A stretch of 64,000 bases of DNA from Pseudobdellovibrionaceae bacterium (GTDB lineage Bacteria > Bdellovibrionota > Bdellovibrionia > Bdellovibrionales > UBA1609). The DNA is taken from assembly GCA_043720065.1 (NCBI GenBank), contig JAYSTF010000113.1:675-64674 (forward strand), given 5' to 3'. This document shows, in pieces, positions 3,092 to 31,312 of the stretch (position 1 is the first letter of the stretch; every line of letters starts with the position of its first letter). The position numbers and the translations under genes were made by a program. Below the pieces are notes generated by a model. That model was not told where the DNA came from. It saw only the letters and a list, made by a program, of their open reading frames with translations, and did not search any database.

Positions 3092-6000
3092 ATGCAGCGG
3101 AACTCTATTTCCGATCGTAAGCAATCTAAAGCGAAAGGCCGCGTCAATGGTGCAAAGCAGCCCCAGCCGGTAGAGAAAAGAGCGGTGCACGCATCTCCCA
3201 CTCCCACCTCAGGGTACATGACTGATCCGAGTAATCATCAGGACGGAAATGAAATAACTAAATCCGCTGATCCCGCACTTCGCCAACAATTGAGAAGCTT
3301 GCTGGGAACCGTAAAGGCCGTTCGTAGCGGAGATTTCTCTGTGCGAATGCCACTCGCTGAGGAAGGCATCGTTTCCGAAATCGGCGAGGTTTTAAATGAC
3401 ATCATCGAACTCAACGAGAACATGGCGAACGAGTTTTTGCGCGTTCGAAACACCGTCGGTCTTGAAGGCCGAATGAACGAACGGGTAATGATGGGCTCGG
3501 TAAAGGGCGCATGGTCGGCCGGCGTTGAATCCGTGAATCTACTTATCGGGGATCTTGTGCAGCCAACCACAGAGGTTGCGCGAGTTATTACGGCGGTCGC
3601 AAAAGGTGACGTGTCCCAGAAGATGTCGCTCGAGATGGACGGCCGACCGGTGAAGGGGGAATTCCTCCGCATCGGTACGACGGTGAACGCGATGGTGGAT
3701 CAGCTGAACTCATTCGCCTCAGAGGTAACGCGGGTTGCGAAGGAAGTGGGAACCGAAGGAAAGCTTGGCGGTCAGGCACATGTAAAGGGCGTGTCTGGTG
3801 TGTGGAAAGATCTAACGGATAATGTGAACGGTCTAGCCGGCAACTTAACGGATCAGGTTCGTAACATCGCAAAGGTGACGACCGCGGTTGCGCGAGGAGA
3901 CTTATCGCAGAAAATTACGGTTGATGCGCGCGGCGAGATCTTGGAATTGAAGAATACGATCAACACGATGGTGGATCAGCTGTCTTCCTTCGCTTCCGAG
4001 GTAACACGGGTTGCGAAGGACGTAGGCACCGAAGGAAAACTCGGCGGTCAGGCGAACGTTAAAGGTGTGTCTGGTACTTGGAAAGATCTAACAGACAACG
4101 TGAATGGTCTCGCGAACAACCTTACAGCTCAGGTTCGAAACATCGCGAAGGTAACGACCGCGGTTGCGAACGGAGATTTATCACAGAAAATTACAGTGGA
4201 TGTTCGTGGTGAGGTTCTTGAACTTAAGAACACGATCAATACAATGGTGGATCAGCTTAGATCATTCGCAGCGGAAGTTACACGGGTTGCGAAGGAAGTG
4301 GGAACGGAAGGCCGACTCGGTGGACAAGCGGATGTTAAAGGTGTGTCTGGTACTTGGAAAGATCTAACTGACAACGTGAATGGTCTTGCAAACAACCTAA
4401 CAGCGCAGGTTCGAAACATCGCCAAAGTTACGATCGCGGTTGCGAACGGAGACTTGTCGCAAAAGATTTCAGTGGATGCGCGCGGCGAGATCCTGGAACT
4501 AAAAGATACGATCAATACCATGGTGGATACACTTCGCTCATTCGCAGCGGAAGTAACGCGGGTTGCGAAGGAAGTGGGAACGGAAGGCCGACTTGGTGGA
4601 CAGGCGGACGTAAAAGGTGTGTCTGGTACTTGGAAAGATTTAACAGACAATGTGAATGCGATGGCGTCGAACCTAACGGTTCAGCTTCGTGACGTGTCAA
4701 AGGTGTCATCGGCGATCGCGAATGGCGATTTAACTCAGAAGATTACAGTAGATGTTCGCGGAGAAATTCTCCAGATCAAAGATGTTATTAATAAGATGGT
4801 GGATCAGCTTTCTTCATTCGCGGCGGAAGTAACCCGGGTGGCGAAGGAAGTGGGAACTGAAGGAAAGCTTGGCGGTCAGGCGGATGTGAAGGGAGTGTCG
4901 GGAGTTTGGAAAGACTTAACTGACAACGTGAACGGTCTAGCTGGAAACCTTACGGATCAGGTTCGAAATATTGCTAAAGTGACAACGGCGGTTGCGAAAG
5001 GTGACTTGTCACAAAAGATCACGGTCGATGCGAAGGGTGAAATTTTTGAGCTTAAGAACACGATCAATACAATGGTAGATCAGCTCAACTCGTTTACTGC
5101 GGAAGTAACACGGGTTGCGAAGGAAGTGGGAACCGAAGGAAAGCTTGGCGGTCAGGCGGATGTAAAAGGTGTGTCGGGAGTTTGGAAAGACTTAACTGAC
5201 AACGTGAATGGTCTAGCCGGTAACCTTACGGATCAGGTTCGAAACATTGCTAAGGTGACAACGGCAGTTGCAAAAGGTGACTTGTCACAGAAAATTACGG
5301 TCGATGCCCGAGGAGAAATCTTCGAATTGAAAAACACGATCAACGTCATGGTGGATCAGCTGAACTCATTCGCAGCGGAAGTTACGCGAGTTGCGAAGGA
5401 AGTGGGAACAGAAGGAAAGCTTGGCGGTCAGGCGGATGTAAAAGGTGTGTCGGGAGTTTGGAAAGACTTAACTGACAACGTGAACGGTCTAGCCGGTAAC
5501 TTAACTGATCAGGTTCGAAATATTGCTAAAGTGACAACGGCGGTTGCGACAGGTGACTTGTCACAAAAGATCACGGTCGATGCGAAGGGTGAAATCCTTG
5601 AGTTAAAGAACACAATCAATACGATGGTGGATCAGCTGAACTCATTCGCAGCGGAAGTAACGCGGGTTGCGAAGGAAGTGGGAACGGAAGGAAAGCTCGG
5701 AGGGCAGGCGGAAGTTCGCGGTGTCTCTGGCACGTGGAAAGATCTCACTGATAACGTGAACTTCATGGCGTCAAATTTGACGAAGCAGGTTCGTGGTATC
5801 GTTAAGGTAGTGACCGCAGTTGCGAATGGCGACTTAACTCAAAAATTCGTCATCGAAGCAAAAGGTGAGGTCGCAGCTCTAGCTGAAACGATCAACTCGA
5901 TGACCGATACGCTTCGAACCTTCGCCGATCAGGTGACTACGGTTGCTCGCGAAGTGGGAATCGAAGGAAAACTTGGCGGTCAGGCGAAGGTTCCTGGCGC

Positions 6001-8326
6001 CTCTGGTACTTGGAAAGATTTAACTGATAACGTGAACATCATGGCCTCAAACTTGACGAAGCAAGTGCGAGGTATCGTTAAAGTTGTGACCGCGGTTGCA
6101 GACGGCGATTTAACTCAGAAATTCGTTATCGAAGCTAAAGGTGAGGTTGCGGCCCTCGCTGAAACGATCAACTCGATGACCGATACACTTCGAACATTTG
6201 CGGATCAGGTAACATCAGTTGCCCGCGAAGTGGGAATCGAAGGAAAACTAGGCGGTCAGGCAAAGGTGCCGGGCGCTGCAGGAACTTGGAAAGATTTGAC
6301 CAACAACGTGAACCAGCTTGCAGGTAACTTGACCTCTCAGGTTCGAGCGATCGCGGAAGTTTCTACTGCGGTGACGAAGGGTGATTTGACCCGATCTATT
6401 ACAGTGGAAGCGCAAGGTGAGGTCGCGGCCCTTTCTGAAAACATCAACCAGATGATCGGAAATTTAAAAGACACGACCTCGAAAAACCAAGAGCAAGATT
6501 GGCTAAAAACCAACCTCGCGAAATTCTCGAGCATGATGCAGGGGCAAAGAAGTATCACTAGCGCAGCTCAGTTGATTATGTCAGAGCTAACCCCACTCGT
6601 TGACGCTCGTCAGGGCGCCTTCTACATGGCGGAGCTTGATACAACCCCAGAGACGACCTTAATTCTTACTGCCAGCTACGCTTTCACGGGTCGCCGAAGT
6701 GTACTTAACAAAATTCATCTTAAAGAGGGTCTCGTCGGTCAGTGCGCCTACGAGAAGAAGCCCATCCTTATTACTAATCCCGATGAGAGTTACGTAAAAG
6801 TTTCCTCGTCACTTCTTGAAATTACGCCGCGAAACATAATAGTGCTTCCGGTATTGTTCGAAGGTGAATTGAAAGCGGTCATTGAACTCGCATCGCTTAA
6901 GCCTTTCACTCAGAACTACATTTCGTTCCTTGATCAGTTGATGGATTCACTCGGTGTGATGTTGAATATGATTTCATCAAGTATGAGAACGGAAGAACTC
7001 TTGATGGAGCTGAAACGGTCTAACGCGGAGTTGGAAGCTCAGGCGAAAGAGCTCGAGGACAAAGCAAAGCTTCTCGAGGTCAAGAACCAAGAGGTGGAGC
7101 TTGCGAGCCGATCTTTGGAGGAAAAAGCCGAACAGCTTTCTCTTATCTCTAAGTACAAGTCGGAATTTCTTGCGAACATGTCGCACGAATTACGAACTCC
7201 ACTTAACAGCTTGTTGATCCTCTCTAAAACGTTGGCGGACAACAAAGAGAAGAACTTAACTAGTGACCAAGTGAAATACGCGAAGACGGTTCACTCGGCC
7301 GGTAATGATCTGCTCTCGCTAATCAACGAAATCTTGGATCTTTCTAAAGTGGAAGCCGGAAAAATGCCGGTCAACCCGAAGAATGTGGAGACTCCGGACA
7401 TCGTTGGCTATCTCGAGCAAACGTTCCGCCCTGTTGCGGAACACAAGGGGCTTGAGTTCGTGATCGAGACGGGTAAACAAATTCCAATGGTAATGTTCAC
7501 CGACGAGAGCCGATTGCAACAGATCCTCAAGAACCTTTTGTCGAACGCCTTCAAGTTCACAGAAAAAGGGCATGTTAAACTTGAGATCAATGCCGTTGAA
7601 GCTATTGACGGTGCAGGAAAGAATATCGTGTTCTCCGTTACGGACACGGGAATCGGTATTCCAGCAGAGAAGCAAAAGCTTATCTTCGAAGCCTTCCAAC
7701 AGGCCGACGGAACCACGAACCGGAAATACGGTGGAACCGGTCTCGGTCTTACAATCTCGAGAGAGATTGCAAGGCTCCTCGGCGGTATTATCGAGGTGGA
7801 ATCCGAGCCAGACATGGGAAGTACGTTCCGCTTAATCCTTCCAGAGCGCTATAGCGGTGCCGATGGCAATTACACCCTGTTACAACAAGAAGTTCGCGCC
7901 ATTCGGCCAATGTCATTCGAGAACATGGATCTCACCGGCCATAAGATTTTGATCGTCGACGACGACACAAGAAACATCTTTGCTCTTAACGCCATTCTCA
8001 AAGCGCGCGGCATGAACGTGTTGCAGGCTGAGAATGGACGTCAAGGTGTGGACCTTCTAATTCAAAATCCAGATGTTGAAATCATCTTGATGGATACCAT
8101 GATGCCAGAAATGGATGGACTCGAGGCCACAAGGCTTATCCGCGAAATGCCGATGCACAAACACTTACCGATCGTTTCACTTACGGCGAGCGCCATGAAA
8201 GGCGATCGTGAAAAGTGCTTCGAGGCAGGTGTGTCCGACTACATTACAAAACCAGTTGATGAAGACACATTGCTTGCAACAATTTATGGTTGGTTGATGG
8301 TGAAGCCGGATGCTCTTGAAAACTAA
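3092..8326 (+). CDS. Soluble hybrid sensor histidine kinase: poly-HAMP array - GAF - HisKA - HATPase - receiver
   Basis: ORF track (1744 aa). No TM segment seen. Residues ~60-1125 are concatenated HAMP-like units in 92-aa repeats ([92 protein letters not shown]). A GAF-like segment follows (QGAFYMAEL...[18 protein letters not shown]), then a coiled coil. H-box [10 protein letters not shown] (His codon 7184-7186). ATPase boxes [23 protein letters not shown]-terminal receiver ILIVDDD...[12 protein letters not shown]...ITKP. Confidence 0.9.
3722..6481 (+). repeat. Ten tandem 276-bp (92-codon) coding repeats, each a double-HAMP unit
   Basis: The GGQA(H/N/D/E/K)V motif recurs 10 times at 92-aa spacing. 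Adjacent units are near-identical in protein, and the DNA differences I checked are mostly synonymous (e.g. 4837.. vs 5113..: acc/aca, gtg/gtt, act/acc, gtg/gta, aag/aaa, gga/ggt). Confidence 0.9.
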
Positions 8327-10415
8327 TGAACGAGTCGACATCCTCGTTGTCGATGATCGCGAGGATGGGCTTTTAGCGATAGAGGCTCTTCTTGGCGAAA
8401 ACCCGGTCTACAATTTGGTTATGGCACATTCAGGGATAGAAGCGTTAAGGCTCCTGCCGAAGCATGACTTCAGCATGATCCTTCTTGATGTGCAGATGCC
8501 CGATCTTGATGGCTTTCAAACGGCGGAGCTCGTTCGCAGGCAAGCTCGTTACAATGGGATAGCGATTATTTTTATAACTGCGATCAATAAAGACGATCGT
8601 TACGTTTACCGGGGCTATGAATCTGGCGCCGTCGATTATTTGTTTAAACCATTCGACCCTGTGATTTTAAAATCAAAAGTCGCGGTTTTTGCTCAGCTTC
8701 ATCTGAAAGAGCGGCAAATTCGCGAGCAGGCTCTCCGTTTGACTGAGCAAGAATCAATCGGGCATCGCGCCCGTGTTCAAGCATTAGAAATTGAGGGATT
8801 AAATCGTTACCGCAGTCTTGCCGATGCCATCCCCCATATGGTTTGGCGAACCACAAATGTAGGCGAGCTAGATTACTGCAACGATCTTTGGAGCAGTTAC
8901 ACCGGTACCTCGCAACTTGATTGCCAAGGTTTGAACTGGCGCCAATCGGTCCACCCGGAAGACCTGCAAATTTTGTTGGATCAATGGACGGTTGCGATGG
9001 CGCAAGGAGAGACCTTTGAAGTCGAGGCCCGAATTCGCCGGCATGATGGAATTTATCGCTGGCATTGGGTTAAGGGTGTCAGTGAAAAAGGCCCTGAGGG
9101 TCATGTCAAAGCATGGCTTGGCACCTGTACGGACATTCACGACCGAAAACTTTTTGAACGTAAACTCATTGAAGCTCAGCGCCAGGCAGAGGAAGCTAAC
9201 CAGGCGAAAACCCAGTTTTTAGCAAATGTTAGCCATGAAATTCGAACCCCGCTCAATGCGATTATTGGTTTTACTGAATTGATGCTCGATCCGGATTGTA
9301 TGGTTGAAGAGCGACAGAATAATCTCTCCATCGTCCGCCGTAACGGGCAGCAGCTTTTAAAAATCATCAATGAAGTTTTGGATATATCTAAAGTAGAAGC
9401 TGGCGGTTTGGAGATCGAGCGCATCGAAACAAACCTCGCAAGTCTTATCGCTGGCATTAAATCGTCGATGAGCGTGATTGCAATTAAAAAAGGAATCAAA
9501 TTAGAGTTTCGCGTGAGAGACAAAATTCCAGAGGAAGTTTGGACGGATTCCACTCGACTACATCAAATTCTGTTAAATATTGTCGGCAATGCCTTGAAGT
9601 TTACCAGCCAGGGCTCAGTGCAAATCACGGCTGAATATTTTGGTGAAATTGACAGACGATCCATCCTTCGCTTCACGGTGTGTGACACCGGAGTGGGCGT
9701 GGATGCGACGGCCGCCCAAAAGATCTTTACGCCCTTTACCCAGGCCGACAGTTCCACAACGCGGATCTTCGGCGGCACGGGCTTAGGGTTAGCTTTAGCC
9801 AGAAAGCTGGCGCGCGCATTGGGTGGGGATATCTGGCTAGATAAGAGCGAACCTGACAAAGGAAGTAGCTTTGTCGTGGAAATTGAGGCGGCGCTTGTGG
9901 ATGAAACGGCTTGGATTAACAGATTCTCTGACGTTTCCGATGACTCCGAAGCCGGCAATGAAACCCATAGTAAAGGCGAACTTGTTGGCGCCAAAATCCT
10001 TTTGGTCGAAGACGCAAAAGATAATCAAATTTTAATTAGTTGTTTCCTACAAAACTCAGGAGCCCACATCGACATCGCGAACAACGGCAAAGAGGGAGTC
10101 GAGATGGCTCTAGCAAACGATTACTCTTTGGTTCTAATGGACATTCAGATGCCGTTTTTGGATGGCTACGAAGCGACTTCACGACTCAGACAAGCGGGCT
10201 TCAAGGCGCCAATCATCGCACTAACTGCTCACGCGTTAAACGAAGAGCGGGATAAGTGTCTGCGAGTTGGTTGCAACGCGCATTTAACGAAGCCAATCAC
10301 GCGGCAGCATTTAATCGATAGCGTCGCCCGCCATCTTGAGCCACGCGGAAGCATCAAAAAATTAGAAGCGCTTCCCAAGCGACCGGCCCGAGATCTAATG
10401 ACCGGGCAAAACTAG
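8310..10415 (+). CDS. Hybrid histidine kinase: receiver - PAS - HisKA - HATPase - receiver
   Basis: ORF track (701 aa). The start overlaps the upstream stop by 17 nt. N-terminal receiver ILVVDDRED...[15 protein letters not shown]-like [14 protein letters not shown]...[11 protein letters not shown]-box [21 protein letters not shown]-terminal receiver [10 protein letters not shown]...[12 protein letters not shown]...LTKP. Confidence 0.9.
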
Positions 10416-14112: not shown

Positions 14113-15078
14113 TTACCAGCCGAGGACGTAACTAAAGATCAGCGGTGCGACAATCGATGCGTCAGACTCTACGATGAATTTCTTAGATTTATCATCGAGC
14201 TTGCCCCAAGTGATTTTTTCATTGGGAACGGCGCCTGAGTAGCCGCCGTAGCTGGTTGTGGAGTCAGAGATTTGGCAGAAGTAGGACCATTTTGCGGTTT
14301 TGCGCTTTAGGTCCTGCTCCAGCATCGGCACTACGCAGATGGGGAAGTCGCCGGCGATGCCGCCGCCGATTTGGAAGAAGCCAATCCCTTGCGGATTTTC
14401 ATTCTTAGGATACCACTGGGATAGTTCCACCATATAGTCGATACCGGTCTTCACGGCGGTGCGCTTCACGTCACCTTCGATCACGTGACCGGCAAAGATA
14501 TTTCCTAAAGTGGAGTCTTCCCAACCCGGAACAAAGATCGGAAGATTTTTTTCCGCGGCCGCCACCATCCAGGAGTTTTTCGGATCAATTTGGTAGTACT
14601 TGGAAAGCAGACCCTCATTGATGAGTTGATAGAAATACTCATGTGGAAAAAATCCCGTATCCTTCTTGGATGCGCCTTCCCACTTCGCGAGGATTTGCTT
14701 CTCGATTCGGCGGATCGCTTGCTCTTCAGGGATGCAAGTATCAGTCACACGATTCAAATGACGATCAAGCAGTTTCATTTCCTCTGCGGGAGAAAGATCG
14801 CGGTAGTTTGGAATCCGAACATAATCTTCGTGCGCCACAAGATTAAAAATATCTTCTTCTAAATTCGCACCCGTGCAAGAGATCCCGTGAACTTTTCCCT
14901 GACGGATCATCTCGGCAAGCGAGAGGCCGATCTCAGCCGTGCTCATCGCGCCAGCAAGAGTAACGAGCATCTTTCCACCGGCTTCGACATGAGCCTTGTA
15001 ACCTTGAGCGGCGTCGACAAGAGCCGCGGCGTTAAAATGGCGATAATGATGGGTAATAAATTGGCTAACTGGTCCCAT
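14113..15078 (-). CDS. Deoxyhypusine synthase-like protein (possible homospermidine synthase-type polyamine enzyme)
   Basis: ORF track (321 aa). DHS-family-like sequence (LVTLAGAMSTAEIG, GISCTGANLEEDIF, FFQIGGGIAGDFPI). The start overlaps the speA stop by 1 nt. Confidence 0.75.
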   Translation of the reverse strand: MGPVSQFITHHYRHFNAAALVDAAQGYKAHVEAGGKMLVTLAGAMSTAEIGLSLAEMIRQGKVHGISCTGANLEEDIFNLVAHEDYVRIPNYRDLSPAEEMKLLDRHLNRVTDTCIPEEQAIRRIEKQILAKWEGASKKDTGFFPHEYFYQLINEGLLSKYYQIDPKNSWMVAAAEKNLPIFVPGWEDSTLGNIFAGHVIEGDVKRTAVKTGIDYMVELSQWYPKNENPQGIGFFQIGGGIAGDFPICVVPMLEQDLKRKTAKWSYFCQISDSTTSYGGYSGAVPNEKITWGKLDDKSKKFIVESDASIVAPLIFSYVLGW

Positions 15079-17045
15079 TATAAACTCTCCCGAAGATAAG
15101 TGTAAGCGTTCAACCCTTTTTCATAGAGCTCGAGGAGCAGGCGCGCCTCACTGCGTGAAATGCGTCCTGAGGTAATTCCTGTCTCAGATGCCTTACGAAT
15201 ACGTTCAAGCAATTCGCCTTTTTGGTATTCCACATAAGCCAACACATCGCGAACGGAGTCACCTTCCACAACGTGTTCAACATTGTAAGTGCCATGTTCG
15301 GTCAATGTAATGTGTACGGCATCGGTATCGCCGAAGAGGTTGTGCATATCGCCCAAAATCTCCTGATAAGCGCCGGCCAAAAATACACCGAGGTAGTAGC
15401 GCTGGTTTTTCTCGAGGTTGTGAACTTCCAAATACTTCTGCTCGCCACCGACGTCGGCATCGATGAAGCGCGACAAGTGGCCGTCAGAGTCGCAAGTCAA
15501 ATCCACAAGTGTCGCGCGGCGCTCAGGCTTTTCGTTTAAGCGATGAATTGGAATCACCGGGAAAACTTGGCCAAGAGCCCACGAGTCTGGAAGTGATTGG
15601 AATACAGAGAAGTTGCAGTAATAAGTGTCAGACAACTCTTGCTCAAGGGCATAGTAGATGTCTTCCGCTTCTTTGTTGTTCTTCGCCATGTCGAGCATCT
15701 TAGTCGCAATCGCCCAATACAGATCTTCGGCTTTTGCCCTTTGCTCTAAACTTAGCACTCCGTATGTGAATAACTGAAGAGTGTCGCGACGTTTTTCCAC
15801 TAAGTCGTTGTAGTACTCATTCATGTTCTGAAGAGTAAGTGTTTTATGAATATCCCAAAGGTCTTGAACAAGACGAGTGTCTTTGTCCATGTTCGGAATT
15901 TGTGGCTCATGAATCTTAACATCGTTGACGCCAAGAACATCGAACACCAACAGTGAGGCGTGGGCAACTAACGCCCGGCCTGATTCAGTAACGATGTAAG
16001 GATGCGGAACGCGCTTCTCATCGCAGATCGACTGTAACGTGGAAACGATATCGTTCGCGTATTCTTGTTCGCTATAGTTTGTAGAGCTATCGCTTTTACC
16101 TGAGCCATCATAGTCAATTCCAAGACCACCGCCGACGTCGATGTACTTCATCGTGGCGCCCATTGCGTAAAGCTCCGTGTATACTCGAGCACCTTCTTTG
16201 ATCGCCGCTTTGATCGACTGAATCGATGGCACCTGAGAGCCCACGTGGAAGTGCAATAGCTCGAGACAATCAAGCGCATTTTCAGCTTTCAAGAACTCAA
16301 TGCCACGAACTATTTCCGACGGTGTAAGGCCGAATTTTGATTTTGCACCCGCCGTCTCAGCCCAACGGCCGGCGGATGGCGTATTCAATTTTGTGCGGAA
16401 CCCGATCTTAGGTTTGATGTCGAGACGCTTTCCAGCTTCGATGATGTTCTTAAGTTCGCTGTAGCGATCGACGACGATAATTGTATTACGACCAATTTTT
16501 TGCGAGATCAGTGCCATCTCGATGTAATCTTCGTCCTTAAATCCGTTACAGATAATAAGCGCCCCGGGGGTATCCATCATCGCGAGACAAATCATCAATT
16601 CTGGTTTACTTCCAGCCTCAAGGCCCACCGCGTGGCTCTGACCGAATTCCACGATCTCTTCCACAAGATGACGTTGCTGATTTACCTTAATCGGATAAAC
16701 GCCGCAGAATTTTCCGTTGTATTTTGATTCTTCAATCGCACGGGCGAAGCAACGGTTTAAGAGATCAACGCGAGAGCGGACGATATCCGGAAAGCGTAGT
16801 AAGATCGGAACGCGGATTCCGCGTTCACGTAAGTCAGCGACTAAGTGGAACAAATCTAGCGCTGGTCCTTGCGGGCCGGCCGGAGTGACTTCCACATGGC
16901 CTTGCTCGTTGATGCGGAAATACTGGGTGCCCCAATAATTGATCCCGTAGAGCTCAGCACTCTTTTTCGAATTCCAATCTTCAGAGCTCGTATTTTTCAC
17001 CACGTCACCCTGACCCTTGTCAGCTTGCCTAACTAATTCCATCAA
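15078..17045 (-). CDS. speA: Biosynthetic arginine decarboxylase
   Basis: ORF track (655 aa). N-terminal YGINYWGTQYF, PLP-Lys context YPIKVNQQ, DVGGGLGIDYDG, and a length typical of SpeA. Confidence 0.9.
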   Translation of the reverse strand: MMELVRQADKGQGDVVKNTSSEDWNSKKSAELYGINYWGTQYFRINEQGHVEVTPAGPQGPALDLFHLVADLRERGIRVPILLRFPDIVRSRVDLLNRCFARAIEESKYNGKFCGVYPIKVNQQRHLVEEIVEFGQSHAVGLEAGSKPELMICLAMMDTPGALIICNGFKDEDYIEMALISQKIGRNTIIVVDRYSELKNIIEAGKRLDIKPKIGFRTKLNTPSAGRWAETAGAKSKFGLTPSEIVRGIEFLKAENALDCLELLHFHVGSQVPSIQSIKAAIKEGARVYTELYAMGATMKYIDVGGGLGIDYDGSGKSDSSTNYSEQEYANDIVSTLQSICDEKRVPHPYIVTESGRALVAHASLLVFDVLGVNDVKIHEPQIPNMDKDTRLVQDLWDIHKTLTLQNMNEYYNDLVEKRRDTLQLFTYGVLSLEQRAKAEDLYWAIATKMLDMAKNNKEAEDIYYALEQELSDTYYCNFSVFQSLPDSWALGQVFPVIPIHRLNEKPERRATLVDLTCDSDGHLSRFIDADVGGEQKYLEVHNLEKNQRYYLGVFLAGAYQEILGDMHNLFGDTDAVHITLTEHGTYNVEHVVEGDSVRDVLAYVEYQKGELLERIRKASETGITSGRISRSEARLLLELYEKGLNAYTYLRESL

Positions 17046-19561: not shown

Positions 19562-21583
19562 ATGATGACACCCAAGAATCCGACGAAGCTTGAAAAGCAC
19601 GGCGACGTACGCAGCGATGATTACTTCTGGATGAAAGAAAGGGACTCGGGCCCTGTACTTGAGTTTTTGAAGATGGAAAATGTGCGGGTGGAAGAGGCCC
19701 TTGGCGACACCAAAGAGTTTCGTGAGCAGCTCGTGAAGGAGATGCGCGGCCGGGTGAAAGAGGACGACATCACCGTCCCAGTCAAAGATGGGGAGTTTTA
19801 CTATCAAGTTCGTTTTCAACAAGGAAAAGAGTACCCGGTTTACATTCGCCGTAAAGGCAGCCCCGAAGCCAATGAAAACGTTCTTGCTGACGTCAACGAA
19901 ATGGCAAAAGGGCACACGTATTACAACTCCGCTGGGGTATCGGTCACACCCGATCATAAGATTGCTGCGCTAGCCGCAGACACTCAGGGGCGCAGGTTTT
20001 ACGATTTGAAATTTAAAAACCTAGAGACCGGCCAAATGCTACCGGATTCGATTCCAGCAATGACGGGCAGTGTAGCTTGGGCGAAAGATAATAGAACCGT
20101 TTTTTACTCCAAGCAAGATCCAGCCACTTTAAGGTCTTACCAGATCTATCGCTACGAGCTGGGCAGCAACAAGCCTGAGCTAGTGTACGAGGAAAAAGAT
20201 GAAACTTTCTACGTCGACGTCGACACGAGCAAAGACGGCGAGATGCTTTTGATTTCAAGTGCCTCTACTCTTTCGAATGAGTGGCGTTATTTGGATGCGA
20301 ACACTCCGAAAGCAGTGTGGCAAGTGTTCCTCCCGCGGGAAGAAAAGCACGAGTATTCCCTAGTTTTTGGCGGCGATCGGTTTTTTATTCTTACGAACTG
20401 GAACGCACAAAACTTTCGTGTGATGGAAGCTGCGATCACGTCGCGTGACAAAAATGATTGGCGCGAGGTCGTAAGCCACAAGAGCGATGTTTTGATCGAA
20501 GCTTTCGATGTTTACCGAACCCATTTAGTTCTAGAGCAGCGCTTTAACGGGTTAACCCGGTTGACAGTTAGGGATCGAAGCACTGGTCGCTCAAAACAAG
20601 TCGAGTTTACGGACGAAACCTATGTCACTTCGATGGTAGGGCTTCCAGAATACGACAGCCCTTATTTCCGCTACACGTATGAAAGTTTGGCAAGACCACC
20701 TTCAGTTTTTGATTTTAATTTCACGGACCACAAGTCGACTTTAAAAAAGGAGCGTGAGGTTCCTGGCTATGATCGCGCTAAATATGTCTCACGCCGACTT
20801 TGGGCAACGGCGCCAGATGGAACAAAAGTCCCTGTTTCATTGCTGCAGTTAAAAGATCGGCCAGCCAACGGCGGCCCCCTGCTTTTGTACGGCTATGGTT
20901 CCTATGGATATAGCGTGGACCCGCATTTTAATAGCAACGTCATCAGTCTCGTTGATCGCGGGTTTGCTTACGCCATAGCGCATATTCGTGGTGGTGCGGA
21001 GATGGGTCGGCATTGGTACGACGATGGAAAACTTTTAAAGAAGCGCAACACCTTCACGGATTTCATTGCGGTAGCCGAACATTTAGAAGGCGAAAAGTTA
21101 ACTTCTCGTGAGCATCTCTACATCATGGGGGGCAGCGCGGGCGGTCTCTTGATGGGCGCAGTGTTAAACCTTCGTCCAGATTTATTCAAAGGGGCGGTAG
21201 CAGCCGTCCCATTTGTCGATGTGGTCACGACGATGCTAGACGACACGATACCGCTCACAACGTTTGAGTACGACGAATGGGGCAACCCAAATGAAAAGCA
21301 GTATTACGATTACATGAAAAGCTATTCGCCGTACGACAATGTCACGACCAAAGCCTACCCGAACATCCTAATCACGACCGGTTATCACGATTCGCAGGTC
21401 CAATACTGGGAACCAGCCAAATGGGTAGCTAAGCTTAGGGACCTCAAGATCGATGAAAATCTGCTATTATTTAAGACGGAAATGTCGGCTGGCCATTCCG
21501 GAGCTTCGGGCCGTTTTGAGCGACTAAAAGAGATTGCGTTGAACTACGCTTTTTTCCTGAAGCTAGAAGGAAAAACCAAGTAG
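19562..21583 (+). CDS. ptrB: Oligopeptidase B (protease II), S9 family
   Basis: ORF track (673 aa). N-terminal DDYFWMKERD and catalytic Ser context GGSAGGLLMG. Length and C-terminal catalytic domain are typical. Confidence 0.9.
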   Translation: MMTPKNPTKLEKHGDVRSDDYFWMKERDSGPVLEFLKMENVRVEEALGDTKEFREQLVKEMRGRVKEDDITVPVKDGEFYYQVRFQQGKEYPVYIRRKGSPEANENVLADVNEMAKGHTYYNSAGVSVTPDHKIAALAADTQGRRFYDLKFKNLETGQMLPDSIPAMTGSVAWAKDNRTVFYSKQDPATLRSYQIYRYELGSNKPELVYEEKDETFYVDVDTSKDGEMLLISSASTLSNEWRYLDANTPKAVWQVFLPREEKHEYSLVFGGDRFFILTNWNAQNFRVMEAAITSRDKNDWREVVSHKSDVLIEAFDVYRTHLVLEQRFNGLTRLTVRDRSTGRSKQVEFTDETYVTSMVGLPEYDSPYFRYTYESLARPPSVFDFNFTDHKSTLKKEREVPGYDRAKYVSRRLWATAPDGTKVPVSLLQLKDRPANGGPLLLYGYGSYGYSVDPHFNSNVISLVDRGFAYAIAHIRGGAEMGRHWYDDGKLLKKRNTFTDFIAVAEHLEGEKLTSREHLYIMGGSAGGLLMGAVLNLRPDLFKGAVAAVPFVDVVTTMLDDTIPLTTFEYDEWGNPNEKQYYDYMKSYSPYDNVTTKAYPNILITTGYHDSQVQYWEPAKWVAKLRDLKIDENLLLFKTEMSAGHSGASGRFERLKEIALNYAFFLKLEGKTK

Positions 21584-21590
21584 GTAAGAG

Positions 21591-22571
21591 ATGTCTGCTT
21601 TGCTGGAAAATAAGAAACGAAAGATCTTAGTCGTCGACGACGATCCTGCAAGTCTGCGTATTTCGTCGAAGGCTTTGGAGTTTGAGGGCTATCAGGTTGA
21701 AACCGCGAACTCAGGTCATGAAGCGGTAACGAAAATGAATGCCTGGCGCCCGCACTTGGTTCTGCTCGACATCAGCATGCCAGCTCTCGATGGGTTAGAG
21801 ACACTTAAAATTTTGCGTGCCCGTGATGAGTACGTTTCCGTGCTTTTCGTAAGCGGAAGATCCGCATCTGAAGATGTAATTCGCGGCCTGGATTCAGGGG
21901 CCGATGATTACATCCGCAAACCCTTCGATACGCTCGAGCTGCTTGCCCGAGTTCGTAGCCAACTACGCATCAAAGATTTAAATGACAGTCTAAAAAAAGC
22001 TAACGACAAACTTAAGGAATTGATCGATATCGATGACCTGACCGGCCTCTTTAACATGCGATCGCTTTATAAGCGTTTGGATTTTGAACTCGATCGGGCC
22101 CGACGCTACAAACGCTCCGTTTGCGTTGTTATGATGGACATGGATCATTTTAAGCAGGTCAACGATAAGCATGATCACTTGTTTGGCAGTTTTGTGCTTT
22201 CCCAAGTGGGAAAAATGATTAAAGACAATATTCGCAAAGTAGATTTCGCCGCCCGCTATGGCGGGGATGAATATCTCGTGGTGCTTACGGAAATCGATCA
22301 AAAAGGAACTGACACATTCACTGAAAGGTTACGCGCTCGCATTGAGGGCTTCACATTTATTTCCGACAATCATTCCATCCGATTAACGGCCAGCCTCGGT
22401 TATTGTTTAGCTTCACCGGCCACGCAAAACATCGACGCCAGGGCGTTAGTGCGATTGGCAGACAAAGCGCTTTACCGGGCAAAACAAGGTGGTCGAAATC
22501 GCGTGGAAGCTTGGACTGACGTTGAAGAACGCAATCCTATTCCAGAGGAATCATTGCGCCGTGGGAATTGA
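21591..22571 (+). CDS. Response-regulator receiver + GGDEF nucleotide cyclase with a Hypr-type Ser at the base-specificity position
   Basis: ORF track (326 aa). Receiver KILVVDDD...LLDISMPALDG...IRKPF. Cyclase DMDHFKQVNDKHDHLFGSFVL, with Ser200 (codon 22188-22190) where canonical enzymes have GD. I-site RKVD lies 5 aa before the active-site motif GGDEY. Confidence 0.9.
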   Translation: MSALLENKKRKILVVDDDPASLRISSKALEFEGYQVETANSGHEAVTKMNAWRPHLVLLDISMPALDGLETLKILRARDEYVSVLFVSGRSASEDVIRGLDSGADDYIRKPFDTLELLARVRSQLRIKDLNDSLKKANDKLKELIDIDDLTGLFNMRSLYKRLDFELDRARRYKRSVCVVMMDMDHFKQVNDKHDHLFGSFVLSQVGKMIKDNIRKVDFAARYGGDEYLVVLTEIDQKGTDTFTERLRARIEGFTFISDNHSIRLTASLGYCLASPATQNIDARALVRLADKALYRAKQGGRNRVEAWTDVEERNPIPEESLRRGN

Positions 22572-23592
22572 AAGCCAACAGCTTAGTGACCTAGAACAAA
22601 AGCGTCGCAGAAATGCGGTCGTGCTTTCATTGGTCATCAGCATAATTTTGATGGTCATAAAGTTCTGGGCTCATAACATGACCGAGTCCCAGGCGATATA
22701 TTCCGATGCGGTAGAGAGTATCGTTAACGTATTAGCCGCGATGGTCGCACTCTGGGTGATCTGGTATTCTGCAAAGCCGGCGGATGAGGATCATCCGTAT
22801 GGCCACGGAAAGATCGAATTTTTCTCCGCCGCTTTCGAAGGCGGATTGATTGCTTTCGCTTCACTCGCGATTATCGTTGAAGCCGGAAAAGCCCTCTATC
22901 GTGGCAATACTTTAAATCATCTTGGTGAAGGGTTAATTCTTGTCGCGATTGCGGGCTTTGGTAATCTGGCTCTCGGACTTTATCTCCGCCATCGCGGCAA
23001 CTCACTAAGTTCAGTGGCCTTAAAAGCCAGCTCTGCTCACGTAATTTCAGATTTTTGGACGAGCGCCGGCGTGATCGTTGGTCTTTTGATCGTACACCTC
23101 ACGGGTTGGGTATGGGCGGATGCGGTCATCGCTATCTTGGTAGGCCTATGGCTTGGCTATACAGGTTTCAAGTTAGTTGGTTCAGCGGTTGGCGGATTAA
23201 TGGATCAAGAAGATCCTCGGCTCCTGGAAACTCTTGCAGAAGTTTTTAAGAAAAGCACCAAACCAGGAATCATCCAGATTCATCATGTCCGAGTCATTCG
23301 CTCTGGATGGTATCATCATATCGACGCGCACTTAGTGATGCCGGAATACTGGGATGTTAAGCGGGTTCACGAAGTCGTGAATCAATTTGAACGCTCTGTG
23401 ATTCAAAATTACGAGTACGGCGGCGAAATGAATTATCATGTTGATCCATGCCGTAGAGCGTACTGCAAATTCTGCGATGTTCTTGAATGTCCTATTCGCG
23501 TGGAACAATTTGAAGCCGCAATGCCGGTTCGCTTGGAGCATTTACGCTCGCCAGTAGAGCCCGCGGAATTCCGCAAACGCCGTAAGCCGTAA
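22561..23592 (+). CDS. Cation diffusion facilitator (CDF) metal efflux transporter with a Cys-rich C-terminal tail
   Basis: ORF track frame. The GTG at 22561 is chosen as start and overlaps the GGDEF stop by 11 nt; the start is uncertain. CDF motifs YSDAVESIVN, HPYGHGKIEF, HVISDFWTS. Tail CRRAYCKFCDVLEC. Confidence 0.8.
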   Translation: MGIESQQLSDLEQKRRRNAVVLSLVISIILMVIKFWAHNMTESQAIYSDAVESIVNVLAAMVALWVIWYSAKPADEDHPYGHGKIEFFSAAFEGGLIAFASLAIIVEAGKALYRGNTLNHLGEGLILVAIAGFGNLALGLYLRHRGNSLSSVALKASSAHVISDFWTSAGVIVGLLIVHLTGWVWADAVIAILVGLWLGYTGFKLVGSAVGGLMDQEDPRLLETLAEVFKKSTKPGIIQIHHVRVIRSGWYHHIDAHLVMPEYWDVKRVHEVVNQFERSVIQNYEYGGEMNYHVDPCRRAYCKFCDVLECPIRVEQFEAAMPVRLEHLRSPVEPAEFRKRRKP

Positions 23593-26884: not shown

Positions 26885-27589
26885 ATGTCTCGCGGCGCAC
26901 AAACTCGGGTCAGTAAGACTCGCACCATACCTTTACCAAACGCTTACATCAAAGCCCTCTATGGTGAGTTTGGCGATTATTGCCTAGATGAGGAGGCGGC
27001 GCCCTTGAAAAAGGGAGTTTGGCGCTCAGACGTCTTTCATGCTTCGGCAGGAACACCTCTCGATTTAGAGATCGGCACTGGGAACGGCTACCATTTCGCG
27101 CACCGGGCCTTTAGCTTTCGTGACCGCTTAATCTTAGGTTTGGAATTAAAGTACAAACCTTTGATCCAATCAATACGCCGAGCCGTACGGCAGGGAAGCC
27201 AAAATGCCCGCGCCGCCCGCTACAACGCCGTATTAACTCAAGAGCTATTCGCAGCGGAAGAGATCAACAACGTTTACATTCACTTTCCTGATCCTTGGAG
27301 CAAAACGGCTCAGCAGAAACACCGGTTGCTCCAGGTGGAATTTCTCCAGCGTTTATGGAACGTCCAACAACCAGGATCATTCGTCGAAATAAAAACCGAT
27401 AACCGGGAATATTTCGACTGGATGCTTATTAAGATTGCGGCGTCCCCGTACAAACTTGAAGCTAAGAGCTTTGATTTGCATCATTCGGAATTCGCCGCGA
27501 CCAATTTTGTGACTCAATTTGAAGGACTATTTGTTCGTCAGGGCACGAAAATTAATTATGCTGTACTTCACAAGGCTCCTTCAGCTTGA
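26885..27589 (+). CDS. trmB: tRNA (guanine-N7)-methyltransferase
   Basis: ORF track (234 aa). LEIGTGNGYHF, HFPDPWSKTAQQKHRL. The start is uncertain. Confidence 0.85.
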   Translation: MSRGAQTRVSKTRTIPLPNAYIKALYGEFGDYCLDEEAAPLKKGVWRSDVFHASAGTPLDLEIGTGNGYHFAHRAFSFRDRLILGLELKYKPLIQSIRRAVRQGSQNARAARYNAVLTQELFAAEEINNVYIHFPDPWSKTAQQKHRLLQVEFLQRLWNVQQPGSFVEIKTDNREYFDWMLIKIAASPYKLEAKSFDLHHSEFAATNFVTQFEGLFVRQGTKINYAVLHKAPSA

Positions 27590-28880
27590 GTTGCTTCAAA
27601 TCTGAAAAATCGAATTTCCCGTCCTGGCGGTGAGGCTCCCAGTAGGCATATTTCCAAGCCTCAGGAAATGGGGCGATAGTCGTTTTAAAAGCGGAATCAA
27701 TGGACGCCCCGTCCACTGCGAGTGGACCCACATTCCCTTGCGCGAAGTAAGCCAAGTAGGCTTGAGTATAATCCGGGTGCCTAATCGGAATTCTGCATGA
27801 GTACTTGTTTAAGATTAGTATTTCGACTCTCACAGATTCGCCTGGTGCCACAGTTATGGTTTTAGCATCTTTATTATCAAGAAAGGCGAATTGGATCGAT
27901 AGTGAAATCGGGACGTAACCTTCAGTAGTGACGACGTGAAACATCTCTAACTTTTGTGCATTGGTTGCAGGAAGCTCTAGCTGGATTGGCAAAGCCTCCA
28001 GGTTTTTTATTTCCGAAATCCCAAAACTGATCCAGCCCCATCGATTGATCGCCACAGCAGGCGTAAACTTTGCCTCAGTCTTCAACATCGGAAAGCGCAC
28101 TTTTAAAAGTGGTGAATAGCTGCGATTTGATTTTTTGGAAGTGGCGATGACTCGGCAAAACTGCTGAGGAACTCTTGAGGGACCACCCTTCATTTTTCCG
28201 CGGGGAATTGCCTTAATGAGATCAAATTCTGGCAGATTAACGAGGCCATCGCCCCTAGCCTGAATAACGATGCGATGGAATTCACACTCGAGGGCAAGTT
28301 CCGAAATATTTTTATCTGTAACAAGCGAGTACCTTTGCCATTCGCTCATCGGAAGCTCAAGCGCTAGAGCAGTTGCACTGATTGGCGTGAAATCCCGCCT
28401 AAATGAGAGTTCCTGGCCATTTATTTTCGATTGAAACTTGAAATCGAGGGGAGGAAAAATTTGGGAGGAGCCTCCTTTGTTAGTGGCAACGATCTCGACG
28501 CGACAAAGGAAAGGTTTTTCAGGATATAGGAGTGCCTCCGTTGGGACGATATCTTTAATGTGAATTCGGTCGGGGCCATCAAACGAGGTTACAAAGGAAA
28601 GGCTGCGCTCGCTGACTCCGCACTGACTGTTTACACTTAGTCGAATACCTTCGGCGGGCACGACTTGAGTCAGTTGCAAGTAGCTTCTATCATCAAGTTC
28701 AGGCGAGACTTTTGCGGTGAATTCTTTCCATTCCAAGGGTTTTTCATCTCCTCGGACGATCTGTGGCGCGGGAAGGCGAATAGACGGCGCACTCTTCTTT
28801 TTGTCCGGCGCACAAGAAACCATTCCAGAAGAAAAGACGCTAATGACACTGAGAATACATAAAACACGGTTAAATTTCAT
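27552..28880 (-). CDS. Hypothetical lipoprotein (443 aa)
   Basis: ORF track frame. Preferred start MKFNRVLCILSVISVFSSGMVSC (ATG 28880, GGAGG 5 nt upstream, lipobox-like MVSC). No family recognised. The 3' end overlaps trmB convergently by 38 nt. Confidence 0.75.
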   Translation of the reverse strand: MKFNRVLCILSVISVFSSGMVSCAPDKKKSAPSIRLPAPQIVRGDEKPLEWKEFTAKVSPELDDRSYLQLTQVVPAEGIRLSVNSQCGVSERSLSFVTSFDGPDRIHIKDIVPTEALLYPEKPFLCRVEIVATNKGGSSQIFPPLDFKFQSKINGQELSFRRDFTPISATALALELPMSEWQRYSLVTDKNISELALECEFHRIVIQARGDGLVNLPEFDLIKAIPRGKMKGGPSRVPQQFCRVIATSKKSNRSYSPLLKVRFPMLKTEAKFTPAVAINRWGWISFGISEIKNLEALPIQLELPATNAQKLEMFHVVTTEGYVPISLSIQFAFLDNKDAKTITVAPGESVRVEILILNKYSCRIPIRHPDYTQAYLAYFAQGNVGPLAVDGASIDSAFKTTIAPFPEAWKYAYWEPHRQDGKFDFSDLKQLKLKEPCEVQHN

Positions 28881-29012
28881 TTGGACCTCCAAGCGAGGCC
28901 AACGTCGCAAGGCGAGTGCCACTTCGCATCTTGGGTAAGTTTTCACTTAACTTTCATTTGGCCAGCCGTATACTGGCGCCAGTTTGGCAATGTGACTAAA
29001 GGAGAACCGATT

Positions 29013-29800: not shown

Positions 29801-30739
29801 GTGAGCGCCACTGTGGAAAACGTAATTATTTTGGGTTCTGGTCCTGCGGGTCTTACGGCAGCTATCTACGCGGCTCGCGCCAATCTTAAGCCTCTAATGA
29901 TCGAGGGCGACGAGGCCGGCGGTCAGCTGATGACAACAACCGAAGTGGAAAACTATCCGGGTTTCCCCAAGGGAATTCAAGGTCCAGAATTAATGATGAT
30001 CACCCGTGAACAAGCGGAGCGGTTTGGGACGCGGTTCATCACTCGTAACGCGACAAAAGTAGATTTCTCCTCACGACCTTTTCGCATTTGGGTGGGGGAG
30101 AAAGAGTACCAAGCCAAGACCGTGATTATTTCAACCGGCGCCAGTGCAAAGTACTTGGGCTTGCCCAATGAACGTAAATATTTAGGCCGCGGAGTTTCTG
30201 CCTGCGCCACTTGCGATGGGGCTTTCTTTAAAAATCTTCAGGTTGCGGTCATCGGCGGTGGGGATACTGCGATGGAGGAAGCGAATTTTCTAACTCGCTT
30301 TGCTAGTAAAGTTTTTGTCGTTCATCGAAAAGATCATTTCCGCGCTTCGAAAATCATGGCGGATCGAGTGATGAAGAATCCTAAGATCGAAGTCTTGTGG
30401 AATTCAGAACTCGTCGACGTGACTGGCGATGAAGTTGTTAAATCGATTAAGGTGTTGAACAATCAAACAAATGAAATGCAAGACATGACGATGGATGGTG
30501 TGTTTATCGCCATCGGGCACAAGCCTAATACGGATTTGTTTAAGGGCCAGCTGCGCATGAATGAAGTAGGTTATCTTTTAACTGAGGGTAAGACCGCATA
30601 CACTTCAGTGCCAGGCATCTTTGCTTCCGGTGATGTGCAAGATCCAGTGTACCGGCAAGCGATCACGGCCGCTGGTACTGGTTGCATGGCTGCGATCGAT
30701 GCCGAACGCTGGCTTGAAGCCAACGAGGCCCATGGCTAA
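29801..30739 (+). CDS. trxB: Thioredoxin-disulfide reductase
   Basis: ORF track frame. GTG 29801 is preferred (AAGGAAGG 10 nt upstream; the longer ORF would overlap the ferredoxin gene). GSGPAGLTAAIYAARA, redox CATCDG, GGGDTAMEEA. Confidence 0.9.
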   Translation: MSATVENVIILGSGPAGLTAAIYAARANLKPLMIEGDEAGGQLMTTTEVENYPGFPKGIQGPELMMITREQAERFGTRFITRNATKVDFSSRPFRIWVGEKEYQAKTVIISTGASAKYLGLPNERKYLGRGVSACATCDGAFFKNLQVAVIGGGDTAMEEANFLTRFASKVFVVHRKDHFRASKIMADRVMKNPKIEVLWNSELVDVTGDEVVKSIKVLNNQTNEMQDMTMDGVFIAIGHKPNTDLFKGQLRMNEVGYLLTEGKTAYTSVPGIFASGDVQDPVYRQAITAAGTGCMAAIDAERWLEANEAHG

Positions 30740-31238
30740 AACACCCCGCCGCATGCATACAAAAGATCTTGTCGATAAAATCGAAAAGATCACTAAAGAG
30801 CGCATGGCAAGAGAGAAGGTCGTTAACATTCGCGACCTCCGTCAAATGCGGCCGCCGGAGCAGCCCCTTACTATATTGGTTATTGAGGATGACGAAACTA
30901 TTCGCGCGGCGCTGAAGCGCATCTTCGAAGGCGAAGGTTATAAGGTAATCGCGGCCGCGGACGGCACTCAGCTAAGCGCTGTTTTAGATGATAACCCGAT
31001 CGACCTAATTATATTAGATGTCGGCTTACCCTGGATTAACGGGTTTGAGCTTGCGACGTTAATGAAGTCCCACGCCGACCTAAAAAACATTCCATTAATT
31101 TTCGTTTCTGGGCGCACCTCAGAGGCAGACATAAAGCAGGGGTTTGAAGTTGGCGCGGACGACTTCATAAAAAAACCCTTCGACATAGAAAAGATCAAAA
31201 AGACCGTCCACACCCTCATGCAACTCGCGCATTCCTAG
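30732..31238 (+). CDS. Single-domain (CheY-like) response regulator with a ~40-aa basic N-terminal extension
   Basis: ATG 30732 overlaps the trxB stop (ATGGCTAA). ILVIEDDETIR...IILDVGLPWINGFE...IKKPF. Confidence 0.8.
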   Translation: MAKTPRRMHTKDLVDKIEKITKERMAREKVVNIRDLRQMRPPEQPLTILVIEDDETIRAALKRIFEGEGYKVIAAADGTQLSAVLDDNPIDLIILDVGLPWINGFELATLMKSHADLKNIPLIFVSGRTSEADIKQGFEVGADDFIKKPFDIEKIKKTVHTLMQLAHS

Positions 31239-31312
31239 AGGTACCACATGACATTCCTCAACTGTTTGCGTCGGCCGACGCAAACAGTTGAGGAATGTCA
31301 TGTGGTACCTCT
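31237..31312. repeat. Perfect 76-bp palindrome (38-bp arms, no spacer); probable strong bidirectional terminator or cruciform
   Basis: agaggtaccacatgacattcctcaactgtttgcgtcgg|ccgacgcaaacagttgaggaatgtcatgtggtacctct, checked base by base. It starts within the TAG stop of the response-regulator gene. Confidence 0.95.

Follow-up and report, generated by a model that had tools for sequence, protein, structure and literature searches.

Here we describe a Rec-GGDEF cyclase encoded within the 64-kb stretch of DNA that we analysed (hereafter the window), which is very probably a Bd0367-orthologous, cGAMP-producing Hypr GGDEF enzyme of an uncultured Bdellovibrionales/Pseudobdellovibrionaceae-like bacterium, the cGAMP part of this assignment following by homology at 56 % identity. 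Bd0367 (DgcA) of Bdellovibrio bacteriovorus HD100 is said to have been presented as a Hypr GGDEF by Hallberg in 2016. This Rec-GGDEF enzyme makes mainly 3',3'-cGAMP, together with c-di-GMP and little c-di-AMP (Lowry et al., 2022; PMC9140294). Its specificity residue is S214, and the S214D mutant produces almost only c-di-GMP, has no cellular cGAMP and is blocked in its gliding exit from prey (PMC9140294); the same work assigns R260 to the I-site, D74 as the phospho-acceptor and a Met to the cross-dimer position (PMC9140294). As laid out below, each of these residues has its counterpart in the cyclase of the window, and the gene itself lies in the same chromosomal neighbourhood.

Results

The cyclase gene occupies positions 21591..22571 of the forward (+) strand, on which all features given below are also located, and encodes 326 residues of the Bd0367 type. 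Its identification as a Rec-GGDEF reading frame in the sequence-only reading is confirmed by the ORF list and by Pfam (Response_reg and GGDEF), with every listed element found in its place; the ATG at 21591 is the sole possible start because of an in-frame TAA at 21585-21587. The REC domain spans residues 12-122 (21624..21956; Pfam Response_reg, E 2.7e-29) and carries the acidic pocket residues D16/D17 as well as D60, S88, Y107 and K110, all invariant across 59 homologues. Phospho-acceptor D60 (codon gac, 21768-21770) is the counterpart of Bd0367 D74 (PMC9140294), and the REC domain is, by residue content, intact and phosphorylation-competent. The GGDEF catalytic domain, residues 147-304 (22029..22502), is complete, covering profile positions 3-161 of 161 (Pfam PF00990, E 1.2e-38). 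In an AlphaFold2 model built with 59 homologues (mean pLDDT 84, with per-10-residue block means mostly 81-94 inside both domains), the REC and catalytic domains are joined by a long helix of 34 residues, 114-147 (21930..22031), which comprises REC alpha5 and the stalk/linker to GGDEF. Foldseek places the full-length model closest to WspR, DgcR and PleD (3bre, 6zxb and 1w25). No foreign-island signature was found in the base composition.

The canonical Rec-GGDEF cyclases PleD, WspR and DgcR make c-di-GMP only. They share with the cyclase its fold, domain order, REC phospho-acceptor, helical stalk and RxxD feedback site, but have a specificity Asp, a cross-dimer Arg, a Gly in the 'GH' pair and often GGEEF as the active-site motif. 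In the cyclase, the nucleobase-specificity position is instead occupied by Ser200 (agt, 22188..22190), equivalent to PleD D344, GacA S348 and Bd0367 S214, while the sugar-face base contact is Asn191 (22161..22163), equivalent to PleD N335 and GacA N339 by HMMER and multiple alignment and invariant among the 59 homologues. Both residues lie in the segment DMDHFKQVNDKHDHLFGSFVL (residues 183-203), a region that HMMER aligns without gaps to PleD as well as to 6d9m, a T4-lysozyme fusion of the Geobacter metallireducens GacA Hypr GGDEF domain; from the Asn to the specificity residue, the cyclase reads ndkhdhlfgs, PleD reads ndtfghdigd and 6d9m reads ndthghlvgs. When the GGDEF domain is searched alone, 6d9m is the top solved-structure match (145.8 bits, with the next chain at 113.7; HMMER), and Foldseek aligns the GGDEF domain of the model to it over 161 columns at 48 % identity with an rmsd of 2.3 A. 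The proposal that Ser200 falls in the base-reading column is therefore borne out three ways, by HMMER (PleD and 6d9m), by multiple alignment and by the AlphaFold model laid on 6d9m; in this last, structure-based alignment, Ser200 stays at the base-recognition position.

Beyond the specificity residue itself, two further positions bear on the product of such enzymes. The base contacts seen in the structure of GacA are Ser348 and Asn339 (Hallberg et al., 2019; PMC6456294). According to that study, natural Ser/Thr-348 enzymes have no motif other than GGDE[F/Y], since a Ser paired with GGEEF would leave the base contact too distant from the Mg2+ ('Goldilocks'; PMC6456294). The cross-dimer residue in turn tunes the product ratio, being Arg in canonical cyclases and Tyr304 in GacA (PMC6456294), and in cGAMP-favouring enzymes it is Tyr, Ser, Ala, Gln or Met (PMC6456294; PMC9140294). 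The cyclase has the central Asp in its active-site motif GGDEY, residues 224-228 (22260..22274), and alignment puts Met156 (22056..22058), which sits in LTGLFNMR and is invariant among the 59 homologues, at the cross-dimer position that is likewise Met in Bd0367. All of the sequence features published for Hypr enzymes are thus found here, including the central Asp and Met156. The Hypr assignment, first proposed from the Asp-to-Ser change in a Rec-GGDEF architecture, is now supported by a complete GGDEF domain, Ser200, Asn191, the central Asp and a non-Arg cross-dimer residue together.

We find that this combination of residues is shared well beyond the single gene. The counterpart of Ser200 is Ser in 120 of the 120 closest homologues (66-100 % identity) and in 12 of 12 Bdellovibrionales genome loci, and Asp occupies this column in all of the distant Rec-GGDEFs retrieved (<=42 % identity, GGDEF domain); Ser200 is therefore not a chance substitution. 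The 12 loci, which come from Bdellovibrionales, Pseudobdellovibrionaceae or related assemblies at 49-69 % identity, all show Met156, Asp195, Ser200 and GGDE[F/Y] (BLAST and a MAFFT column table), while the distant Rec-GGDEFs, from Gemmatimonadota, Acidobacteriota, Pseudomonas and others, have Arg, Gly and Asp at the respective columns and usually GGEEF. An exhaustive HMMER search with the GGDEF domain against 1.84 billion cluster representatives recovered ~40 representatives (300-360 aa, 50 % identity clusters) that combine Met, a non-Gly residue at position 195 and Ser (Thr once); among 150 representatives, the central Asp is never missing from a Ser/Thr domain whose active-site motif is intact. 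Read from these homologue counts, the Asp-to-Ser change has become fixed under selection in a sizeable clade.

The remaining member of this signature, Asp195 (22173..22175), gives a 'DH' pair (D195-H196) in place of the canonical 'GH' and serves as a clade marker in our homologue table. The pair is found in 120 of the 120 closest homologues; across the Met-bearing Ser/Thr clade, position 195 is mostly Asp, occasionally Asn, Ser or Glu, and never Gly, whereas Gly is essentially universal at this column in sampled canonical GGDEF domains. In the model, Asp195 is located in a short loop ahead of helix 196-211, the helix that carries Ser200. The sequence-only reading had counted GGDEY and 'DH' as two additional deviations of this enzyme, and both motifs are indeed present, but neither is anomalous. 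GGDEY is no deviation, since natural Ser/Thr-348 enzymes are confined to GGDE[F/Y] (PMC6456294), within a published active-site motif range of [G/A/S]G[D/E]E[F/Y], and the 120 closest homologues divide into 29 with GGDEY and 91 with GGDEF. Nor is 'DH' peculiar to this gene, as it occurs throughout the clade and in the Bd0367 peptide itself, for which the published mutagenesis primers encode HDHLFG-[S214]-YVLSEVG (PMC9140294). Taking either motif as the mark of a degenerate or unusual enzyme is ruled out by the homologue tables and by both papers (PMC9140294; PMC6456294).

The strongest alternative to a cGAMP-producing enzyme is that the cyclase functions as an ordinary diguanylate cyclase, making essentially c-di-GMP only in vivo as a result of GTP/ATP ratios, of its phosphorylation state or of the Tyr228/Asp195 variants. 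A Ser at the specificity site alone is insufficient for cGAMP output; the D-to-S variant of GSU3350, the sole canonical mutant still active, stayed a pure diguanylate cyclase with c-di-GMP as its only product (PMC6456294). c-di-GMP is also the favoured product where a Hypr enzyme has Arg at the cross-dimer position (PMC6456294), and Bd0367 too makes some c-di-GMP, with a phosphomimic mutant whose output is shifted further toward it (PMC9140294). However, the cross-dimer residue here is Met rather than Arg, as it is in the primarily cGAMP-producing Bd0367 (PMC9140294), and invariance of the Ser across the clade, over deep divergence, would be hard to explain without a functional consequence. 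We consider it unlikely, on this balance, that the cyclase is restricted to c-di-GMP, and we retain the cGAMP-producing enzyme as the preferred reading.

The Bdellovibrio Rec-GGDEF enzyme to which the cyclase had been likened from its sequence is Bd0367, and the gene in the window proves to be its syntenic orthologue by identity, gene order and residue offset. D60, M156, S200 and R246 correspond to Bd0367 D74, M170, S214 and R260 at a constant offset of 14, so that the stretch from the REC phospho-site to the I-site is free of indels. When read from an upstream ATG, the orthologue of a Bdellovibrio sp. (locus L006) reproduces the published numbers D74, S214 and R260 and the cross-dimer Met exactly, and it carries the exact peptide HDHLFGSYVLSEVG. 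A second homologue search, seeded with the L006 protein, yielded two clusters named Bdellovibrio bacteriovorus, P0279 and P0282. The cyclase is 56 % identical over 314 residues to P0279, which stands here as a proxy for HD100 Bd0367, and the P0282 gene (locus L084), ~0.41 Mb into a 4.09-Mb chromosome, has the native bd0367 15-mer GGCGGGGATGAATTC (PMC9140294) exactly at its GGDEF motif.

Gene order points the same way. In B. bacteriovorus, the order is arginine decarboxylase (-), LeuRS (-), Rec-GGDEF (+), cation diffusion facilitator (CDF) transporter (+), TrmB-like methyltransferase (+), variable genes, thioredoxin-reductase-like (+) and REC (+), and the arrangement ArgDC-LeuRS / cyclase-CDF-TrmB-like ... 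TrxR-like-REC is common to the window and to loci L083 and L084. The neighbours in the window are 49 % (CDF), 51 % (methyltransferase), 73 % (TrxR-like) and 62 % (REC) identical to those of B. bacteriovorus; relative to it, the window has an S9 peptidase inserted in the LeuRS-cyclase gap, and RecQ and gamma-glutamyltranspeptidase after the CDF. From these converging proxies for the HD100 record, we regard positional orthology of the cyclase gene with B. bacteriovorus bd0367 as established. The two proteins are alike in their Rec-GGDEF architecture, Ser specificity site, cross-dimer Met, HDHLFGS, RxxD with a second I-site Arg, and central-Asp GGDE[F/Y], and they differ in that the N-terminus of the cyclase is 14 residues shorter than in the 343-aa numbering of Bd0367 and in that Bd0367 has GGDEF where the cyclase has GGDEY.

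The CDF gene itself (22561..23592, 343 aa, GTG start; Pfam Cation_efflux and ZT_dimer) overlaps the end of the cyclase gene by 11 nt. This overlap, already proposed from the sequence, is real: an independent gene call puts the CDF start at 22561, alignment of orthologues agrees, with a GTG start at this position fitting the aligned N-termini of nine of them, and at the closest genome locus (L001) the GTG is the only feasible CDF start. Spacing between the two genes ranges from -11 to +81 nt across loci and from -4 to +81 nt among the orthologues, with a gap of ~40 nt in B. bacteriovorus, and the 11-nt overlap is specific to the lineage of the window. In 11 of 13 informative loci, including that of B. 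bacteriovorus, the next gene after the cyclase is a CDF gene; in L011 and L082 there is none beside it. As a feature of gene order, the pairing is a conserved linkage and at most a candidate functional coupling, and none of the papers in the collection searched connects Bd0367 with its CDF neighbour.

Upstream of the cyclase, an oligopeptidase-B-like S9 peptidase gene (19562..21583; Pfam) ends with its stop 7 nt ahead of the cyclase ATG, an arrangement also seen in L082. Promoter- and terminator-like matches between 19300 and 23900 are at or below shuffle expectation. Because no such signal exceeds chance in this interval, the peptidase, cyclase and CDF genes probably form one transcription unit in this lineage, with the peptidase first.

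The CDF neighbour could invite another reading, in which the cyclase has become dedicated to another product, c-di-AMP, say, or some non-canonical purine dinucleotide, and the overlapping gene ties it to metal export. Other purine NTPs are indeed substrates of Hypr enzymes, c-di-AMP is among the products of Bd0367 (PMC6456294; PMC9140294), and the adjacency recurs at most of the informative loci; nevertheless, none of the Hypr enzymes in these two papers makes more than minor amounts of c-di-AMP (PMC6456294; PMC9140294), the CDF gene is missing beside the cyclase in the two loci named above, and the spacing of the junction is not conserved. We regard such a specialisation as highly improbable for what is otherwise best read as a cGAMP-producing enzyme.

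An Rfam scan of all 64 kb gave zero matches at gathering score, and no GEMM riboswitch was detected in the window even at E <= 1. Among sub-threshold Rfam matches, STnc400 at 31192-31312 alone drew our attention, and was rejected since the match is due to a perfect 74-bp palindrome. A Pfam survey of 44 ORFs, together with motif scans, revealed no PilZ, HD-GYP, EAL or second GGDEF gene in the window, and no gene for a cGAMP receptor or cGAMP phosphodiesterase was found in these 64 kb. A 464-aa ORF at 27552-28946 was considered as a PilZ candidate, as it sits where one B. bacteriovorus genome has a PilZ gene, though the two genes are unrelated. Separately, two hybrid histidine kinases are encoded 11-18 kb upstream of the cyclase, with no evidence linking either to it.

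The catalytic and inhibitory sites of the cyclase are both preserved. G224, G225, D226, E227, N191, D183, D185, K298 and R302 are intact and invariant among the 59 homologues. The primary inhibitory site, an RxxD motif, is R215-K-V-D218 (22233..22244); the early observation, read directly from the sequence, that this RKVD I-site is retained holds for residues 215-218, for the five-residue spacing to GGDEY, which is as in PleD, and for 120 of the 120 closest homologues. By alignment, Arg246 (22326..22328) is the secondary I-site arginine, corresponding to Bd0367 R260 and GacA R393, and it is invariant among the 59 homologues. That the cyclase might be a catalytically inactive, degenerate GGDEF serving only as an I-site receptor for cyclic dinucleotides would fit these two retained inhibitory elements and the GGDEY in place of the textbook GGDEF, yet is very hard to credit given the full and invariant catalytic set, the acceptance of GGDE[F/Y] as an active motif (PMC6456294) and the activity of the orthologue Bd0367.

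Discussion

Taken with what is known of its homologues, the cyclase can be placed in a working scheme. By comparison with Bd0367, GacA, WspR and DgcR, dimerisation via the REC domain and the helical stalk would pair two GGDEF domains, and each GGDEF half-site would, as in homologues, bind one purine NTP, either ATP or GTP, via Ser200 and Asn191, with Ser200 together with Asn191 predicted to be able to hydrogen-bond adenine or guanine. The short Ser200 side chain would be compatible only with the shorter Asp226 holding Mg2+, at the 'Goldilocks' distance, and Glu227 would act across the dimer. Met156, in place of the Arg that reaches across the dimer in canonical cyclases, would remove the bias toward guanine. 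From the dual base contact of Ser200/Asn191, together with Asp226 and Met156, mainly 3',3'-cGAMP would therefore be expected, with c-di-GMP predicted as a second signal and little c-di-AMP.

This output is probably subject to control by phosphorylation and by its own product. The unlinked hybrid kinase Bd0596 has been proposed as the partner of Bd0367 (2026 preprint; 10.64898/2026.01.30.702909), and phosphorylation of D60 in the cyclase by an unlinked kinase would likewise tune its activity or its product ratio, while binding of a dinucleotide at the R215-D218/R246 I-site would bring about feedback inhibition. Downstream, cGAMP may act on surface (gliding) motility and hence on prey exit, by analogy with Bd0367; this motility and prey-exit output is the weakest and least secure step of the scheme.

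Judged by sequence, the cyclase adds one more member, at ~56 % identity, to an enzyme family that has already been characterised and is known from this lineage. Production of 3',3'-cGAMP out of ATP and GTP, with reversion to c-di-GMP on changing the Ser to Asp, is established for Bd0367 and GacA only (PMC9140294; PMC6456294). GacA (GSU1658 / Gmet_1914) of Geobacter, the founding Hypr GGDEF (5VS9 / 6D9M; PMC6456294), resembles the cyclase in its Rec-GGDEF architecture, its Ser348/Asn339 equivalents, its central Asp and its I-site Arg, with GGDEF domains that are ~48 % identical. GacA has a cross-dimer Tyr and 'GH', however, where the cyclase has Met and 'DH'; it signals via GEMM-Ib riboswitches, none of which is detectable in this window, and its gene is not syntenic with that of the cyclase. 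The DncV / CD-NTase cGAMP synthases (Vibrio, CBASS) are alike only in that 3',3'-cGAMP is the predicted main product of the cyclase as well; they have an unrelated nucleotidyltransferase fold and a different reaction order and genomic context, and no CD-NTase domain is present in the cyclase.

Two modest new leads emerge from the comparison: an Asp that replaces the Gly of the 'GH' loop across the clade, and a CDF gene that recurs next to the cyclase. We found no discussion of this Asp in the Bd0367 and GacA literature cited here, nor is the CDF neighbour discussed there. A broader proposal, speculative and rather improbable as a whole, would combine both. The Hypr enzymes of Bdellovibrionales would then be a subclass of their own, marked by a co-varying set of Met, a non-Gly (mostly Asp) loop residue where helix alpha2 begins, Ser and the central Asp; the loop Asp would act as a second, so far unrecognised determinant of the dual cGAMP/c-di-GMP output, and the frequent CDF pairing, with overlapping reading frames in the window, would link metal status to dinucleotide signalling.

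More generally, the published rules for recognising cGAMP-producing GGDEFs ask for Ser/Thr at the specificity position, for the central Asp and for a cross-dimer residue other than Arg; the present case illustrates that raw sequence is enough to apply them. The Bd0367-type enzyme and its genomic position are conserved well outside the genus Bdellovibrio, among Bdellovibrionales and Pseudobdellovibrionaceae metagenome lineages (~40 clusters), and this conservation suggests that cGAMP signalling may go back to the ancestor of this predatory group.

Conserved features of the cyclase and its locus

At the position of Asp195 (22173-22175) in the Rec-GGDEF cyclase, all 120 of 120 close homologues carry Asp, in place of the Gly that is nearly universal in the 'GH' loop of GGDEF domains. 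Within the Bd0367-like clade, Ser/Thr domains that bear Met at the cross-dimer position have Asp, Asn, Ser or Glu at the 195 position and never Gly, a residue that canonical GGDEF domains retain. The Hypr papers on Bd0367 (PMC9140294) and GacA (PMC6456294) make no mention of this replacement.

The genomic setting of the cyclase is likewise conserved on its 3' side, where a CDF metal exporter gene directly follows Bd0367-type cyclases in 11 of 13 informative loci. This adjacency ranges from the window MAG (CDF gene at 22561-23592) through to B. bacteriovorus (L083, L084), and includes loci L001-L007, L010 and L012, with the two genes overlapping by up to 11 nt or standing up to 81 nt apart; loci L011 and L082 lack the CDF gene. 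A literature search gave no report of the pairing. On the 5' side, LeuRS and the cyclase are separated by an oligopeptidase-B-like S9 peptidase gene (19562-21583), whose end is 7 nt ahead of the cyclase ATG. One other Bdellovibrionales MAG (L082, 2868-4988) shares this arrangement, and Bdellovibrio species have no S9 peptidase gene at that place; the peptidase gene is an extra component of the locus, specific to the lineage.

Other elements of the window

Beside LeuRS, an arginine decarboxylase gene is followed immediately, on the same strand, by a deoxyhypusine-synthase-family gene (14113-17045, minus), an arrangement that points to a pair for polyamine (homospermidine-type) biosynthesis. The reading frames of two hybrid histidine kinases (3092-10415, plus) share 17 nt; the first codes for 1744 aa with about 10 HAMP repeats, a GAF domain, HisKA/HATPase and a C-terminal REC, and the second 701 aa arranged as REC-PAS-HisKA-HATPase-REC. 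No link was found between these kinases and the cyclase, 11 kb apart in the window. Bacterial Ig-like domains recur (Big_6 x5, Big_13) in a 1738-aa protein (51648-56864, minus), probably a large surface adhesin. A perfect 74-bp palindrome of two abutting 37-nt arms (31238-31311), present once in the window, starts at the stop codon of a stand-alone REC gene (30621-31238) and may be a bidirectional terminator or REP-like element; the palindrome hairpin probably accounts for a below-threshold Rfam match to STnc400 (E 6.6e-10; 64 bits, where the gathering score is 80).

One B. bacteriovorus genome (L084) carries a 285-aa PilZ-domain gene (7753-8610, minus), and at its position a second strain has an unrelated 357-aa gene and the window an unrelated 464-aa ORF (27552-28946, minus), which gave no match in a Pfam search and whose N-terminus looks, by eye, like a signal peptide. 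Lying two genes past the CDF gene, the L084 PilZ-domain gene puts a possible dinucleotide receptor close to bd0367.
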